Position numbers and translations under genes: made by a program. From IMG/VR virus record IMGVR_UViG_3300011335_000900, positions 32,001 through 96,000 of that record: a stretch of 64,000 nt of DNA; one strand, 5' to 3'. Source of the DNA: a virus. Below the pieces are notes generated by a model, which was given only the letters and a program-made list of their open reading frames with translations, was not told the DNA's origin and made no database searches. Below, in pieces: positions 23,508 through 56,480 of this stretch (the stretch's first letter is position 1; every line of letters starts with the position of its first letter).

Positions 23508-24110
23508 ATGTACTACCCAAAATCTCAAATTAAACCAAATCTTTACACTAATGGAGAAGAATTTATCCTTTCTACTACTAAAGAAACCTATAAAGGACCT
23601 TACTACAAAATATCTTCAGGTAAGCAATATACTGGAAAAAATCCTCAAGATAAGCCTAATATTTTATTAATTTATTTTAATCAAATAAGCGAAACAAATC
23701 CACAAAATGAAAATGAATATACTCCTGTTGATATTATAGTCCCATTAATTAATAATGAATATTCTATATTAACTCCTCCTTTTAGAAATATCCCATTATT
23801 TAATCCTACATTACCAACTGATCAAGATAAACAAAACGGACAATTTAATAGATATTTCTGTAAAAAAACAAATGAATTAAAATATTTAGAAATAGATAAA
23901 GAAACACACACTAAATTACAAGCTAAAGATCCAAAAATAGCATGGGATTTATATGAACCTGCTTCTTTATTATGGGTTATTAAAGGAAATCAAGAAACAG
24001 TATTTAATACAAATAAATCATCTGTTTTTAAAATTGAACAAAACCAAAGATGGAATGGATTTTCCCAATACTTTAAAGAAAATTATTTAAAATATTACTT
24101 GGGATCATAA
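23508..24110 (+). CDS. Hypothetical protein, probably baseplate-associated
   Basis: Follows the hub gene closely; LYTNGEEF..YKGPYY motif. Confidence 0.45.
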   Translation: MYYPKSQIKPNLYTNGEEFILSTTKETYKGPYYKISSGKQYTGKNPQDKPNILLIYFNQISETNPQNENEYTPVDIIVPLINNEYSILTPPFRNIPLFNPTLPTDQDKQNGQFNRYFCKKTNELKYLEIDKETHTKLQAKDPKIAWDLYEPASLLWVIKGNQETVFNTNKSSVFKIEQNQRWNGFSQYFKENYLKYYLGS

Positions 24111-24128
24111 AATATAGTTTGTATCTTT
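24099..24128 (+). promoter_or_regulatory. Bacteroidota-type (-33 TTG / -7 TAnnTT) host-RNAP promoter; one of 13 copies
   Basis: TTG at 13152, 24099, 28031, 31031, 39187, 47991, 51029, 51590, 54435, 55277, 56448, 60098, 61950, each with TAnnTT starting exactly 23 nt later. Confidence 0.8.
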
Positions 24129-24133
24129 AAAGT

Positions 24134-25381
24134 ATGTATTGGCTTATAGAAGATATTGAACATATAGAAACAATTTGTCGCACTAAGCACCAAGTAGCTT
24201 ATATCGATATTATCCCATGCTCACATACACTTCACCCTGTTGAAAACAGTGTATGTGCTATTTATCTTCGTTTTGAAAACGACAATAAAGGATATATTAT
24301 TTCTGTAAACCATAGCGAAACAATAAATTTTGATTTAGAGACAGTAGAGAGAGTATTAAATAGTATAGAAAAAATCAATGTAAGAGATAAAAAAGAATTT
24401 TTACATTATTTCTGTCTCAAGCATGTTTACCAACCACCCCCCACCCCTCATCCGTATATACCTCAATTAACACCTGCTCATAACCATATTTACAATAAGC
24501 ATCTAAATATACAAGATTTAAACACAATAGTGCCGATTGTAAAACACTATGAAGTATGTGAACAAAACTATTTAAACTTTAAAGAAGATGTAAATCCGTT
24601 TTATAATAAAGCAGCAACCGTGTTTGCTCAACTCGAACAAGCGGGTATAAAAATAGACCAAACTAAATTCGAGCAGTACTTCAATAAAGAGGTAAACGAG
24701 TTTATATACACGCAATATAACCTAAATACACTAACAACAAGACCCTCCAACGCATTTGGAGGAATTAATTTTTCAGCTTTAAATAAAGACAATGGAGAAA
24801 GAGAATGTTTTATACCGCGCAATGATCTTTTTATTGAAATGGACATTAGTGCTTATCATCCTAGTATTATTGCCAATTTACTTAATTACACTTTCGATAG
24901 TGGTGATGTTCATGGCTCTTTTGCTAAAATGTATGGAGTGGATTACGCCAAAGCAAAAGAAATCACGTTTAAACAAATTTATGGAGGAGTTTGGAAAGAA
25001 TATCAAGAACTTCCTTTCTTTAAAAAAGTAATAGCATATACTGATGATTTATGGGATACATTTAACTATGGTGGATATATTGAATGTCCAATTTCAAAGC
25101 ATAAATTTGTAAAAAGTGAAATGGAAAATATGAATCCACAAAAACTCTTAAATTACTTACTCCAAAACTTGGAAACCGCAAATAATGTTTGTATACTATA
25201 TGAAATATTTAAAATATTACGAGGGAAAAATACTAAACTCGTATTGTATGTTTACGATTCATTTTTATTTGATTTTGATGAAAATGAAAAAGACGTAATA
25301 GAACAAATATCTAAAATAATAAATGGTAAAAATTTTCAATTTAAAATTAAAACCGGCACAAACTACAATAATATAAAATAA
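24134..25381 (+). CDS. Miniature family A DNA polymerase-like protein
   Basis: TLTTRPSN (cf. TGRLSS), motif A DISAYHP, motif B AKAKEITFKQIYGG, motif C VYDS; thumb region nearly absent. Confidence 0.75.
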   Translation: MYWLIEDIEHIETICRTKHQVAYIDIIPCSHTLHPVENSVCAIYLRFENDNKGYIISVNHSETINFDLETVERVLNSIEKINVRDKKEFLHYFCLKHVYQPPPTPHPYIPQLTPAHNHIYNKHLNIQDLNTIVPIVKHYEVCEQNYLNFKEDVNPFYNKAATVFAQLEQAGIKIDQTKFEQYFNKEVNEFIYTQYNLNTLTTRPSNAFGGINFSALNKDNGERECFIPRNDLFIEMDISAYHPSIIANLLNYTFDSGDVHGSFAKMYGVDYAKAKEITFKQIYGGVWKEYQELPFFKKVIAYTDDLWDTFNYGGYIECPISKHKFVKSEMENMNPQKLLNYLLQNLETANNVCILYEIFKILRGKNTKLVLYVYDSFLFDFDENEKDVIEQISKIINGKNFQFKIKTGTNYNNIK

Positions 25382-25431
25382 GTATTAGGAGTATAATAGA
25401 CTTTTTTGTACATTTTAATATGTATAATAAA

Positions 25432-26118
25432 ATGGAAAATTTAAAAATTTGCTGTGAATGTAATATATCACTCACATTAAAACATTTTAGTAAAAATAAA
25501 AACACTAAAGATGGATATAATAATAGATGTAAATCTTGTTGTAGTTTTAGAAATAAAAAAAGATATGAACTAAACAAAGATAATATTAAAATTAAATGTA
25601 ATCAATATTATCATAGTAATAAAGAAATCATTAAAAATAAACAAATAGGAAAAATTAATTCATATCAAAAAAATAAAGAATGGCATTTAATTTATCGAGA
25701 AAAACACAAACAAAAATATCTTCAATATATTAAAGAATATCAAAAAATTAATCAACCTATAAAATATGCTACGGATTTAACATATAGAACTAAAAAATTA
25801 ATAGGAAACCAAATTAGAAATTTTTTAAAAGGAAATAAAAATAAAAAAACTGAAATACTTTTAGGATATTCATATCAAAACTTTATTAAAAATATAGGGA
25901 TTCCTAAAAAAAACGAACATATTGATCATAAAATACCAATAACCTGGTTTAAAGATATAACCCCAATCAACATTATTTGGAGTTTAGAAAATCTTCAAAT
26001 AGTTGATCAATTTTATAATCAATCAAAATCAAATAGATTTTTTGATATTGTTTCTTTAAAATATTTAAATATTGTTAAAATTTATATAAAAGAAGAATAT
26101 CAAAATAAATTAAATTAA
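25432..26118 (+). CDS. Free-standing HNH homing endonuclease
   Basis: N-terminal CxxC..CxxC Zn finger; EHIDHKIP...NLQ..N.SKSN HNH core; likely start at 25432 behind the late promoter at 25418. Confidence 0.85.
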   Translation: MENLKICCECNISLTLKHFSKNKNTKDGYNNRCKSCCSFRNKKRYELNKDNIKIKCNQYYHSNKEIIKNKQIGKINSYQKNKEWHLIYREKHKQKYLQYIKEYQKINQPIKYATDLTYRTKKLIGNQIRNFLKGNKNKKTEILLGYSYQNFIKNIGIPKKNEHIDHKIPITWFKDITPINIIWSLENLQIVDQFYNQSKSNRFFDIVSLKYLNIVKIYIKEEYQNKLN

Positions 26119-26134
26119 ATTAAAGTTATTAAAA

Positions 26135-26605
26135 ATGTTATATTCCGAACCTAACCTTAATATGTATAGTATATATCCACCATTGGAATATGATTTTGAT
26201 AATATATTAAACTATATGTCTAGCAATAGGTTGTTTTGCACTTTCTCCCCATTAGATGATTTAGATTCATTGATAAATGGACTTACATCACGTTATACAA
26301 TAATGTATAACAAAATGTTTGTGCTACATATTAAAAGCAACAATGAGTATGTTGTAACATACAATGTAGATCAAGGAAACATAAACGACATTCCAGACAA
26401 TACAATTTTAGTACATAGAAAAAAAGATTCCAACACACTCTATACAATTAATGCTTTAAATGAATTAATTAAAAAATTAAATGGTGGAGCAGTGGATACA
26501 AATTACCCAGTAAATTGGCAACATTACAGAAATTGTATATTGTTGACCCAACACAATGAAATTAAGCAACTTAATACAAAGATTTTTAAAATTATTGAAT
26601 TATGA
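26135..26605 (+). CDS. Hypothetical protein (NRLFCTF, VHRKKDSNTLYTINALN); real start possibly 26216
   Basis: Open frame with motif-like segments; a late promoter motif at 26160 lies inside the annotated 5' end. Confidence 0.6.
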   Translation: MLYSEPNLNMYSIYPPLEYDFDNILNYMSSNRLFCTFSPLDDLDSLINGLTSRYTIMYNKMFVLHIKSNNEYVVTYNVDQGNINDIPDNTILVHRKKDSNTLYTINALNELIKKLNGGAVDTNYPVNWQHYRNCILLTQHNEIKQLNTKIFKIIEL

Positions 26606-27153
26606 AGTTGTTAGATATATTAAGAGAATCAATTTCCTCTAACATATATAAAATTACATTTAATGATGATGAATTTGATATTGAAGGATCTAATTTAAAT
26701 GAAATATTAAAAATACCTAATTTAACATATGATATGGGTGGGGGGGAAAATGTTTATTATCCTTCTTCAAATGTTGTTGCTGTTGATTATATCGATGTTA
26801 ATGATTATGCTAGGTGGACTTTAGATGAATGGGGCGATGAATTAAGTGTAAAATATTACATATTACAAGATTTAAATATTCCATTTTCTTTCCCAAAAGC
26901 AAACGAAATCATTTTATCTAAAGTAGTAATTTATATAAAGAATATAGAAGCTTTAGCCCAATCAGTAAATAATTCATTAAAACCTAATGGAAAAATTGAA
27001 TTTTTTGCAGAACATGGGAAAAATACTTTAAGTAAAAAAGATATAAATTTTCTTCAAATATTAAATGAAAAATATTCTTTTCAATTTGAAAACAATCAAA
27101 CAATAGATCAATTAAAAAAAGATCCAACCCAAAGAATATACTTAAAAAAATAA
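26602..27153 (+). CDS. Class I SAM-methyltransferase-like protein with capsid-type leader
   Basis: YDMGGG..VVAVDY and SLKPNGKIEF motifs; N-terminus MKLLDILRES. Confidence 0.5.
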   Translation: MKLLDILRESISSNIYKITFNDDEFDIEGSNLNEILKIPNLTYDMGGGENVYYPSSNVVAVDYIDVNDYARWTLDEWGDELSVKYYILQDLNIPFSFPKANEIILSKVVIYIKNIEALAQSVNNSLKPNGKIEFFAEHGKNTLSKKDINFLQILNEKYSFQFENNQTIDQLKKDPTQRIYLKK

Positions 27154-27154
27154 A

Positions 27155-28030
27155 ATGACACAAGAACAACTCCGTATGCAAATGTTGGCTGGTATCATTA
27201 CTAAAGATCAATATAAAGCTAAATTAAATGAAGATTCTTCTGATAAATTAACTCTATATCTTTATACCCAAACCCCCATAGGCTGGGAAGGAGTAACTCT
27301 AATAAACTCAGTATTATGTGAAGTATCATATTCAAGTGGTAAGTTTGATTATGTATCTCTTAGAAAATATAAACCTACCAAAATAGATAAATTTGCAATA
27401 GATCACAGGAATTTTTCCGAAAGTGAATATGAAATTGTTACATCTTATTTAGATAAATTAAATATCCAATATAATCAATATCTTTATATAAAAGATGCAA
27501 GTAGTTATTCAAATATAGAAACTATTTTTACAAAAAATCCCCCAAACTTTGTTCCAAAAGATATAAAATTAAACACTGAAATATTAGATTTTTTTATAAA
27601 AAGAGATAATCCTGAACAAATTGAAGGAGATATTGTTTATGGAGATGTTTATGATTTTGGAGGTGCTGAAGGACCAATAGATAGTTCTCAAGCGGTTGTA
27701 GTAGATCTTTATTTAACCCCTAAACAAAAGAAAAATCCTTCTAAGTTTATAGAAGCTGATTTGAGTAAATATGTTGAACTTCCCCCAAAAAATGGAATTA
27801 ATATTTTTTCTGCAGTAGCTCAAATTAATTCTCCTAATAATCTATCAAAAACTATTAAACATGCCTTAAAACCTGGAGGGTTATTAGTTATTAAAGATCA
27901 TTTAGGAGCAGTTCAAAATCTTTTAAAATACTTAAAAGAATTTAAACTTTTAGAATTTGAATATGTTGATATAGAAGATGAAGAAAATATTACTTTATCT
28001 GATCAAATTTTTGTAGTATTAAAAAAATAG
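27155..28030 (+). CDS. Class I SAM-methyltransferase-like protein with scaffold-like leader
   Basis: YDFGGAEG..VVVDL and ALKPGGLLVIKD; N-terminus LRMQMLAGII. Confidence 0.55.
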   Translation: MTQEQLRMQMLAGIITKDQYKAKLNEDSSDKLTLYLYTQTPIGWEGVTLINSVLCEVSYSSGKFDYVSLRKYKPTKIDKFAIDHRNFSESEYEIVTSYLDKLNIQYNQYLYIKDASSYSNIETIFTKNPPNFVPKDIKLNTEILDFFIKRDNPEQIEGDIVYGDVYDFGGAEGPIDSSQAVVVDLYLTPKQKKNPSKFIEADLSKYVELPPKNGINIFSAVAQINSPNNLSKTIKHALKPGGLLVIKDHLGAVQNLLKYLKEFKLLEFEYVDIEDEENITLSDQIFVVLKK

Positions 28031-31095: not shown

Positions 31096-32454
31096 TTGAC
31101 ACTCTCCAGCATAGACGAATATGGCCCATCCTTCCAAATGAAGGTTATTTCATCACTCCTAACACATAAAGAATTTTTACAAAACATAAATGATGTACTA
31201 AGCGATGAATATTTTTCTAACCCTGCACATAAATGGGTTATAAATCAAATCATACAATATTATGAAAGCTATCACACAACTATATCCATGGATATTTTAA
31301 AAGTTGAAATGAAAAAACTTGATAACGAGGTACTTAAAGTATCTGTTAAAGAGCAATTACGTGAAGCATATAGAGCAGATTTAGAAGATTTAGAATATGT
31401 TCAACTTGAATTCTCAACATTTTGCAAAAATCAACAACTAAAAAAAGCACTACTAAATAGTGTAGATTTACTTAAAGCTGGAGATTACGATTCAATTAAA
31501 TACATGATTGAATCAGCAATGAAAGCTGGACAAGATAAAAACATAGGCCACGAATACAGAAAAGATACTGAATCACGTTATCGTGAAGATCACAGAACAA
31601 TAGTTCCATCTCCTTGGCCCGCTATTAATGAATTAATTCAAGGTGGTTTAGGAAACGGAGATTTAGGTTTAATTTTTGGTAGTCCGGGTGGGGGAAAATC
31701 ATGGACATTAGTTGCTTTAGGTGGATTTGCTGTTAAAATGGGATACAATGTTATTCACTATACTTTAGAATTAAGTGAATCCTATACAGGACGAAGATAC
31801 GATGCATTTTTTACAGGCTTACCAGTAGATTCTTTAGACAAAAATAAAGATCAAGTAAATAATATGATGTCTGATTTAAAAGGTGAATTGATAATTAAGG
31901 AATATCCTATGGGAAAAACTACAATAAACACAATAGAATCTCACATACAAAAAGTAAAAGATTTAGGGATTGAACCTGACCTTATCCTTATAGACTATAT
32001 TGATCTTCTTTCAACAAGAAAGAGAAATGTTGACCGTAAGGGAGAAATAGACGATATTTATACTAGTACCAAAGGATTAGCTAGAGAGCTTAATTTACCA
32101 ATTTGGTCAGTTTCCCAAGTAAATCGCGCGGGGGCTAAAGATGATGTTATTGAAGGTGATAAAGCCGCAGGTAGTTACGATAAAATGATGATTACCGATT
32201 TATCAATTTCATTGTCAAGAAAAAAAGAAGATAAAGTTAATGGAACCGGAAGATTCCATATCATGAAAAATAGATATGGGATGGATGGATTAACTTTTCA
32301 AGTAGATGTTAACACATCAAATGGTCACATTATTATTGGAGACCATTACGATGAAGAAGCAGATACAGTTGCACCAAGAAAGTCATTAAATGGTAATTTT
32401 GATGATTTAGATAGACAAATGTTAAGTAATAAATTTTTTGAATTAAACACATGA
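31096..32454 (+). CDS. dnaB: DnaB-like replicative helicase (gp41-like)
   Basis: GSPGGGKS, YTLELSE, LIDYIDLL, SQVNR, KNRYG; TTG start. Confidence 0.92.
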   Translation: MTLSSIDEYGPSFQMKVISSLLTHKEFLQNINDVLSDEYFSNPAHKWVINQIIQYYESYHTTISMDILKVEMKKLDNEVLKVSVKEQLREAYRADLEDLEYVQLEFSTFCKNQQLKKALLNSVDLLKAGDYDSIKYMIESAMKAGQDKNIGHEYRKDTESRYREDHRTIVPSPWPAINELIQGGLGNGDLGLIFGSPGGGKSWTLVALGGFAVKMGYNVIHYTLELSESYTGRRYDAFFTGLPVDSLDKNKDQVNNMMSDLKGELIIKEYPMGKTTINTIESHIQKVKDLGIEPDLILIDYIDLLSTRKRNVDRKGEIDDIYTSTKGLARELNLPIWSVSQVNRAGAKDDVIEGDKAAGSYDKMMITDLSISLSRKKEDKVNGTGRFHIMKNRYGMDGLTFQVDVNTSNGHIIIGDHYDEEADTVAPRKSLNGNFDDLDRQMLSNKFFELNT

Positions 32455-55817: not shown

Positions 55818-56480
55818 ATGCCTTCAAAAGAATATATGAAAGAATATAGGAGAAGAAAAAATCCTAAAATTCTAGAAAAAGAAGAACTTGCTCAACAAGA
55901 AAAAAGACGTTGTACAAAATGTTCTGTTATTAAATCATTTGAGTCATTTGTCCCCCAAAAAGCAGGATATATGGGAATAAAATCTCAATGTAAAGAATGC
56001 GATACAGAATACGATAAACAGTTCCAATCTAAAACCAATGCTAGAGCTAAGCGGGATAAAACAGACAAAGCTAAGCAATATAGAAAAAAATATGTAGCTG
56101 AAAATTTAGATTGGTGGAGAAAGTATGAAAGAGAATACAGATACAACCGTAGAAAAGAAGACATGTTTTTTAAAATAAAGGGAAACATGTCTGGAAGGTT
56201 ATCTGACTTGATTAACAAAAGAAATTTAGGTACTACTACTCTTGAACTTATAGGATGTGATCGAGAAACTTTTCTATCCCATATTGAAAAACAATTCACC
56301 GAAGGAATGACATGGGAAAACTATGGTTTAAAAGGATGGCATGTAGATCATATTCTCCCATTATCTTCATTTGACTTAACTGTAGAGGATGAAGTAAAAA
56401 AAGCTTGCCACTATACAAACCTTCAACCACTTTGGTGGCAAGATAACTTGGAAAAGGGTAATAAAGTTAGTATATTATAA
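55818..56480 (+). CDS. Free-standing HNH homing endonuclease
   Basis: CxxC..CxxC finger; GMTWENYG..WHVDHILP...HYTNLQPLW..DNLEKGN. Confidence 0.9.
   Translation: MPSKEYMKEYRRRKNPKILEKEELAQQEKRRCTKCSVIKSFESFVPQKAGYMGIKSQCKECDTEYDKQFQSKTNARAKRDKTDKAKQYRKKYVAENLDWWRKYEREYRYNRRKEDMFFKIKGNMSGRLSDLINKRNLGTTTLELIGCDRETFLSHIEKQFTEGMTWENYGLKGWHVDHILPLSSFDLTVEDEVKKACHYTNLQPLWWQDNLEKGNKVSIL

Follow-up and report, generated by a model that had tools for sequence, protein, structure and literature searches.

Organization of the locus

We analysed a 64,000-nucleotide stretch of viral DNA (positions 32,001 to 96,000 of IMG/VR record IMGVR_UViG_3300011335_000900), hereafter called the window. We focused on a 38-base spacer that separates a DNA polymerase open reading frame (ORF) of 415 residues (24134-25381) from an ORF called at 25420-26118, which encodes an HNH-type endonuclease. 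The spacer contains an intergenic copy of a coding motif that belongs to the next gene downstream, a conserved gene here termed gene X; we refer to this copy as the mimic. Related loci are cited by L numbers and public sequencing runs by X numbers. The features of the locus are as follows.

24134..25381, + strand: mini family-A DNA polymerase gene, the left homology arm of the cassette; 99% identical to that of L003-L006, and with a homologue annotated 'DNA polymerase family A' in Flavobacterium phage immuto.
25384..26224, + strand: swapped segment (HNH cassette); homology to L003-L006 ends at 25383 and resumes at 26225.
25389..25415, + strand: putative target-site mimic, consisting of a 21-base NRLFCTF-like core and a conserved GAGTAT prefix; recurs upstream of HNH homologues.
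25415..25431, + strand: late-promoter-like motif TTAAT-ATGTATAATAAA, a putative promoter with the HNH start codon directly 3'.
25432..26118, + strand: free-standing HNH-type endonuclease gene with its probable start at 25432; the ATG chosen by the ORF caller (25420) falls within the promoter motif.
26135..26605, + strand: gene X, always found 3' of the mini PolA, with relatives in viral contigs.
26135..26224, + strand: donor-type 5' end of gene X, which travels with the cassette and has one extra codon between the ATG and the AAY preceding the motif.
26225..26245, + strand: N[RK]LFCTF motif, the most conserved coding stretch of gene X, copied by the mimic; the putative HNH-binding part of the homing site, with the right junction of the swap at its 5' edge.

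The intergenic copy of the motif duplicates its peptide but not its codons

The intergenic copy at 25395-25415 (AATAGACTTTTTTGTACATTT) and the coding copy at 26225-26245 (AATAGGTTGTTTTGCACTTTC; codons 31-37 of the gene X ORF 26135-26605) both translate as NRLFCTF. They share 15/21 bases, and each of the 6 base differences falls at a third codon position. Both sequences thus confirm what a first-pass annotation, made from the letters alone, had reported: seven of seven identical residues with six differences, all silent. The same annotation had stated that the mimic has no start codon of its own, and this also held. An in-frame TAG lies two codons 5' of the copy (25386-25388), a TAA lies immediately 3' (25416-25418), and no ATG, GTG or TTG occurs between both stops. 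The frame of the copy contains two stops in the 10 codons upstream and differs from the polymerase frame. Because stops flank it, a start codon is absent and its frame is not that of the polymerase, the mimic is not translated; a translated mini-ORF and a frameshift extension of the polymerase were both rejected for the flanking stops and the missing start codon.

Shuffling of the 38-base spacer produced a seven-residue match to the three flanking proteins in 28/300000 shuffles and to any of 67 window proteins in 285/300000. Across all non-coding stretches of the window, no seven-residue match between non-coding and coding sequence was found besides the NRLFCTF pair. With at most 1 mismatch, AATARRYTNTTTTGYAC occurs at two sites alone in the whole 129-kb record, namely the mimic and the motif. 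The 20-base element GAGTATAANNGACTTTTTTG has a single occurrence in the window even allowing 3 mismatches, and TTTTG(T/C)AC has two copies alone on the + strand of the window (mimic and gene X motif). The idea that the mimic is a general promoter element was rejected, as it is a one-off in the window and in the record, with no recurrence. The two copies of the motif are direct repeats 830 bases apart, with the HNH gene and the new gene X 5' end between them.

The HNH-type gene and its late-promoter-like motif

The HNH gene likely starts at 25432, because its homologues begin with MKIC at the window's second ATG and the promoter motif ends just before this position. The encoded protein has an N-terminal CxxC...CxxC and a C-terminal EHIDHKIP...NLQ...N..K, and the C-terminal motif is invariant in 18 homologues. 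The protein matched phrog_1035, annotated as endonuclease VII (E 4.9e-13), and phrog_2255, annotated as 'HNH endonuclease' (E 5.6e-4). The family profile aligned end to end with the second HNH-like ORF of the window (55818-56480), with an hhalign probability of 90.8%.

This second ORF has a CxxC...CxxC N-terminus and an HVDHILP...N...N C-terminus, scored E 0.2 against Pfam HNH, below the cutoff, and has its own relatives (L089-L095). No peptide-level mimic for it was found in the stretches counted as non-coding; its 540-base upstream region was not studied.

A late-promoter-like consensus, (TTAAT)AT[T/G]TATAATAAA, recurs just upstream of many + strand genes, with further copies at, for example, 7362, 8521, 9014, 10828, 12588, 16961, 35804 and 53828. 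The copy before the HNH gene has its 12 bases at 25420-25431 and its TTAAT extension from 25415, and the mimic abuts it or overlaps it by one base. The first-pass annotation had placed the promoter at 25418, with the mimic ending 2 nt before it, which comes close to these coordinates. From its position, the HNH gene appears to own a late-type promoter.

The HNH cassette replaces the 5' end of gene X

Loci L003-L006 lack the HNH gene, and their gene X is just 87-88% identical to that of the window, against 99% amino-acid identity for the polymerase. In its 841 bases the cassette brings the mimic and the late-promoter motif, followed by the HNH gene and 30 codons that substitute for the 5' end of gene X. 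Read side by side with the window, L003 carries approximately 81 bases instead (its own 27 codons of gene X), and the agreement between the two runs to two bases past the polymerase stop and restarts at the first base of the motif. Mismatches to the relatives in the flanks are even, at approximately 3-4%, up to both junctions; this even level indicates that no longer tract of foreign sequence lies around the cassette. Extended co-conversion tracts in the flanks were accordingly not seen.

An HNH homologue was found in 1 (L008) of the 82 loci first examined. In the comparison as a whole, the HNH gene lies between the polymerase and gene X in 12 rows (the HNH-plus set) and is absent from 80 loci. 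A nuclease gene inserted amid conserved genes and missing from close relatives is expected of a free-standing homing endonuclease, and the co-conversion expected of one is also seen, the first 30 codons of gene X having been replaced along with the HNH gene.

We compared the public sequencing runs X5, X9, X13 and X15 with the window, and they bore out the borders of the cassette independently. One contig of X15 joins 25383 to 26224 via 81 other letters, which is the HNH-less joint. The DNA run X13 yields a 1038-base contig that extends across the cassette, together with loose ends at 25383 and 26224 that continue into HNH-less sequence; X9 has contigs ending at 26224 and 26225. Since X13 holds both, HNH-plus and HNH-less alleles coexist in one sample, and because the two share a sample, homing may be ongoing. 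X15 is an RNA-library run with little depth over the HNH gene (one 245-base contig), and its contigs cannot show expression.

The mimic recurs upstream of related HNH genes

The HNH homologues located between the polymerase and gene X differ widely in their identity to the window's protein (L087, 95%; L083, 76%; L084 and L085, 65-68%), the more distant ones being L103 (50%), L104-L107 (44-45%), L008 (44%) and L108 (40%). Upstream DNA was available for 11 of the 12 HNH-plus rows, the contig of L085 beginning inside the HNH gene. A motif-like 21-mer was present at -36 to -39 from the HNH ATG in 9/11 rows, corresponding to 7/9 distinct cassettes, and in those 9 rows it lies 3-6 bases 5' of the 12-base late motif. 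When the 75-base upstream region of each locus was shuffled and compared with the locus's own motif, the observed match was reached in 16 of 20000 shuffles for the window, 0 for L087, 3 for L083, 5 for L104 and 4 for L106. By eye, the mimic of L103 matches its own motif at 18/21 bases. L103 and L104 have the same 17-base mimic core, with 47% identity between their HNH proteins.

The mimics follow the type of gene X with which they occur. Lys-type phages, in which gene X has NKLFCTF (AAT AAR TTR TTT TGT AC), carry mimics of the form AATAA(G/A)TT(C/T)TTTTG, namely AATAAGTTCTTTTGTAC (L103, L104), AATAAATTCTTTTGTAC (L106, L107) and AATAAATTTTTTTGC (L105). Arg-type phages, in which gene X has NRLFCTF, carry mimics with AATAGACTTTTTTG or AAGCGACTTTTTTG, namely AATAGACTTTTTTGTAC (window, L087), AAGCGACTTTTTTGTAC (L083) and AATAGACTTTTTTGC (L084). 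In L084, gene X uniquely reads ...TGC TCA..., and the locus's own mimic reads ...TGC TCT.... The HNH tree groups the Arg-type cassettes in a single clade and four Lys-type rows in a second, with L103 apart.

Among natural alleles of gene X, the closest to the window's mimic share 19/21 bases with it (L014, L015). When the two upstream codons are included, the match is 22/27, with ATG AAT AAC AGA CTT TTT TGT ACT TTT in L014 and GAG TAT AAT AGA CTT TTT TGT ACA TTT in the mimic. That all six differences from the resident motif are silent follows from the mimic's retention of the non-wobble positions fixed by coding in every natural allele; it varies only where those alleles vary.

A scan of 2.9 million viral contigs with the R-type element returned the known contigs and one unrelated giant-virus contig. 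With the K-type core, 64 stretches were found in viral contigs, and an HNH gene was present in the 4 known contigs only. A pattern scan of prokaryote genomes found no further cassettes. The results support the intergenic copy as a genuine feature that is tied to the HNH gene, stands beside its late motif and recurs in related cassettes. We are highly confident of this descriptive core, that is, of a real, cassette-linked and conserved copy of the gene X motif, without HNH-linked recoding.

Two other cassettes at this locus differ in layout. L008 (2147-2990) has a different HNH cassette in the same place: it has displaced the last ~45 polymerase bases, and what remains of the former polymerase end, stop included (AATAATATAAAATAAGTT), is found 3' of the HNH gene, just before gene X, a layout that mirrors the window's. 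L108 (1960-2800) is HNH-plus without a mimic; its gene X motif is uniquely NRLFATF (TTT GCT ACA), and the NTG-AAY context described below is retained.

Sequence just upstream of the gene X motif in the two allele types

The N[RK]LFCTF motif is present in 78/80 HNH-less loci, the exceptions being L054 (NRLFCSF) and L066 (NRLLCTF). NTG stands two codons before the motif in 78/80 HNH-less loci (...NTG AAY / AAY ARR...) and in 1/12 HNH-plus rows. The other 11 of the 12 HNH-plus rows have ATG and one extra codon (GCA, TCT, CTA or CTC) before the AAY, or AAT ACC in L105. An extra codon upstream of the motif was found in 2/80 HNH-less loci (L049, L066). It is here, just 5' of the motif, that the alleles differ in step with the HNH gene. 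NTG-AAY precedes none of the mimics.

The two exceptional loci, L049 (2960-3090) and L066 (2970-3100), have the extra codon together with a longer 5' region of gene X, otherwise an HNH-plus feature. No HNH or mimic remnant is visible at their polymerase/gene X junction. They may be resistant alleles or former carriers.

Gene X and its neighbourhood

A total of 437 relatives of gene X were found in viral contigs, of which 80 were retained. Pfam and PHROG searches of gene X gave no match and the Atlas no usable match; Pfam and PHROG searches of the window's mini polymerase likewise gave no match. In the nearest isolated phage, Flavobacterium phage immuto, a homologue of gene X directly follows the polymerase annotated as family A, and genes for SSB, recombinase, 5'-3' exonuclease and helicase come next; this annotation lends partial support to a T4-like gene set. 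An SSB homologue also follows gene X directly in L087, L083, L105 and L107.

In most Lys-type relatives (L024-L082), gene X begins within the final ~8 codons of the polymerase gene and overlaps it in a different frame. The 5' coding region of gene X contains ..CTTAATATGTATAGTATA.. (LNMYS, 26156-26178), which resembles the late-promoter motif (motif scan match at 26162-26173), and the N/H-M-Y codons of this look-alike are kept in most relatives. Downstream, 26602-28030 holds two adjacent ORFs (183 and 291 residues) that are absent from every related locus and look like a separate insertion; they are weakly alike (blastp E 0.002). On the other side, the gene 5' of the polymerase (23508-24110) is highly divergent between the window and L003-L006, with dense mismatches before 24130, and marks another mosaic border.

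A possible I-TevI-like operator

We tentatively favour the explanation that the mimic is an I-TevI-like operator, which would derive from the homing site and bind the HNH protein beside the late promoter. The HNH protein would recognise the conserved motif in gene X of HNH-less phages and would cut or nick at the motif, or just 5' of it, when NTG-AAY precedes. Recombinational repair would then insert a copy of the donor cassette, 3' of the polymerase gene and 5' of the motif; the right border of the swap, at the 5' edge of the motif, is consistent with a break at that point. The resident gene X of HNH-plus phages would retain the motif and be protected by the altered upstream sequence, that is, by the one extra codon. 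The mimic would be a second site that, like the resident motif, is bound and left uncut. When occupied, it would damp the adjacent late promoter and so limit HNH expression, as the I-TevI operator does in T4.

Several observations weigh against this reading. Concerning the enzyme, Pfam HNH models scored below the cutoff against the protein, and a PDB profile search found none. A predicted model of the protein (mean predicted local distance difference test score, pLDDT, 85.7) gave 0 rows in Foldseek at E ≤0.001 and 0 rows in VIA-align at Z ≥5; the best fold-search rows were weak matches, many of them to HNH domains, which neither confirm nor exclude HNH. The protein is therefore called HNH-type on motif and PHROG evidence rather than on a fold match. 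Concerning the target, the motif is a presumed homing site, and the same product would result if the break fell at the junction of polymerase and gene X. The association of the extra codon with the HNH gene may be plain linkage of a co-inherited 5' block. Concerning the mimic, it lies 3-6 bases 5' of the 12-base late motif and not fully over it. No recognisable mimic was found upstream of the HNH start in L108 and L008. In the own-motif shuffle test, L084 was not significant (4578/20000) and L105 was marginal (558/20000). Third-codon-position identity among the HNH genes is already 0.5-0.8 in these AT-rich genes, and conservation of the mimic is clearly above that only within a type. Finally, the Lys/Arg covariation amounts to roughly one evolutionary event, plus the case of L084, because it follows one split of the HNH tree.

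Alternative explanations

The mimic could instead be a relic, a piece of an older gene X allele, caught on the first entry of the endonuclease gene at the motif or beside it and a functionless passenger since. Its resemblance to genuine alleles (the 19/21 match to L014 and L015, reaching into two upstream codons) is what a relic would show, and descent from a coding allele would make all differences silent. L008 offers a comparable leftover, the old polymerase 3' end and stop lying 3' of its different HNH gene. By hand count, mimics agree with their own motifs at 2-5/7 wobble positions, so that there is no sign of recent copying, and frequent copying of the resident motif into the mimic was rejected on the same count. 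A neutral 21-base relic, however, should not persist while the HNH protein falls to 47% identity, as between L103 and L104 with their identical core, nor keep a fixed distance to the ATG. A relic also leaves the Lys/Arg match with gene X unexplained, and nothing of the gene X 5' region precedes any of the mimics. A pure relic is unlikely, as is chance, because the mimic is conserved across deep HNH divergence, fixed in position and matched to the type of gene X.

It is quite unlikely that the mimic is a cis element unrelated to HNH binding, such as an upstream promoter element or a factor site that times HNH expression, with its likeness to gene X reflecting origin only. That its spacing to the late motif and the ATG is constant across 7 distinct cassettes would suit such an element, and the T-run followed by TTG(T/C)AC could serve as one. 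Against this, TTTTG(T/C)AC, whether followed by TATAAT or not, is absent from the other + strand genes of the window, and the 20-base element is unique at 3 mismatches. Scans of the + strand found no sigma-70 promoter or terminator at the mimic, nor does its RNA structure stand out (z -1.09). Why each mimic matches its phage's variant of gene X would also go unexplained.

There is a small chance that the mimic, besides acting as a brake, is active in mobility itself. The HNH protein might bridge the donor mimic and the cut recipient motif, or nick the donor next to the HNH gene, and in this way deliver the template to the break; its specificity would co-evolve with the mimic, and the one-codon spacer would confer immunity by moving the cut site away from the binding site.

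A role as a recombination aid has a slimmer chance still. The mimic would then be a short homology patch that helps to capture or rearrange the cassette by pairing either with the motif on the recipient's broken end or with the resident motif. The direct repeats bracketing the HNH gene and the new 5' end, 830 bases apart, and the right junction at the motif would agree with this. Such pairing would leave the recipient 5' region upstream of the mimic, which was seen in 0/9 mimic rows; recombination between the copies would delete the start of gene X; and the left junction lies at the polymerase stop, not within the mimic.

Another explanation, prompted by the first-pass annotation, is that the resident motif was recoded with rare codons to escape the phage's own HNH enzyme and that the mimic is the original, cleavable sequence. 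The codons which that annotation singled out are indeed unusual: in 48 ORFs of the window (17538 codons), 3% of arginines are encoded by AGG, 5% of leucines by TTG, 30% of cysteines by TGC and 13% of phenylalanines by TTC, and the codons of the mimic are commoner. The annotation's proposed comparison of HNH-plus with HNH-minus alleles, however, revealed no HNH-linked difference. The HNH-less L003-L006 read AAT AGG TTG TTT TGC ACT TTT and so have AGG, TTG and TGC too, and the HNH-plus L087 is identical to them at all 21 motif bases. The final TTC is private to the window and run X5: position 26245 is T in every covering contig of X9, X13 and X15, and C in X5. Across 88 sequences of gene X, the motif does not stand out from other conserved codons in its mix of synonymous codons. 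Nor does synonymous diversity there bear the mark of an arms race, CTG being enriched (14/88 rows) within one clade and the entropy ordinary. Recoding for immunity was rejected on the shared rare codons and this ordinary diversity; because the codons are equal in HNH-plus and HNH-minus alleles, the very comparison by which that annotation proposed to judge it, the claim is refuted and its chance of being right is minimal.

Chance resemblance in AT-rich DNA, for which one could cite the T-rich sequence and the sharing of 15/21 bases only, is hardly credible given the shuffle tests, the uniqueness of the element and its recurrence at the same position in independent contigs.

Comparison with known homing systems

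In the passages of PMC2988022 devoted to it, the I-TevI operator is described as sharing 15/20 bases with the homing site and overlapping a late promoter; it is bound as well as the homing site and cut approximately 100-fold less, the cleavage motif being missing at the right distance (PMC2988022). The present locus is alike in two respects. A look-alike of the homing site, here a presumed one, stands at the late promoter of the enzyme's own gene, here a putative one, with 15/20 bases shared in T4 and 15-18/21 here, and in both systems the look-alike is without the part thought to be needed for cutting. It is unlike in that I-TevI is a GIY-YIG enzyme encoded in a group I intron, whereas the enzyme here is HNH-type and free-standing, and Rfam finds no intron. 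The I-TevI operator also lies across the promoter, whereas the mimic lies 3-6 bases upstream of the 12-base motif.

Free-standing endonucleases typically cut far from their own gene, according to the portion of PMC2988022 that treats them. One such enzyme, the HNH enzyme MobE of T4, nicks a conserved 5' stretch of the downstream gene nrdB, with co-conversion, and mobE is without a promoter of its own and is co-transcribed with nrdA, as set out in the parts of PMC2790892 that concern it. The same parts stated in 2009 that the regulation of the free-standing T4 endonucleases was unknown (PMC2790892). The present locus resembles MobE and the other free-standing Mob/Seg enzymes ('intronless homing'), as those sources portray them, in that an HNH-type gene lies between two conserved genes and is patchy among relatives. 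It further resembles MobE in that the target appears to lie in the conserved 5' stretch of the downstream gene and the stretch from gene to target is co-converted. It is unlike the mobE gene described there in having its own late-type motif and a mimic, mobE being promoterless in that account.

The HNH nicking endonucleases I-HmuI, I-BasI, I-TwoI and I-PfoP3I reside in group I introns of phage DNA polymerase genes. The present enzyme is alike in being HNH-type and tied to a phage DNA polymerase locus, and unlike in that those introns split the polymerase gene, whereas the polymerase ORF here ends before the cassette and no intron model matches. An Rfam search of 24000-27200 at E up to 1 returned 0 families. 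Because there is no Rfam match, the polymerase ORF has its own stop and the downstream gene is not a polymerase, the locus does not have an intron setting of the I-HmuI type.

A search of the open-access literature listed no description of an operator of this kind for a free-standing HNH enzyme. To our knowledge, the regulation and self-protection of free-standing homing endonucleases are largely unknown, and I-TevI is the sole worked case of an operator that resembles the homing site. The silent-only differences of the non-coding copy are explained here without recoding. If the proposed reading is true, the enzyme would bind both the motif and the mimic and cut only after NTG-AAY, and a one-codon insertion would confer immunity. 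The logic of I-TevI would then extend to a free-standing HNH-type enzyme that is unrelated to it and occurs in a large group of T4-like phages, uncultured and from fresh water.

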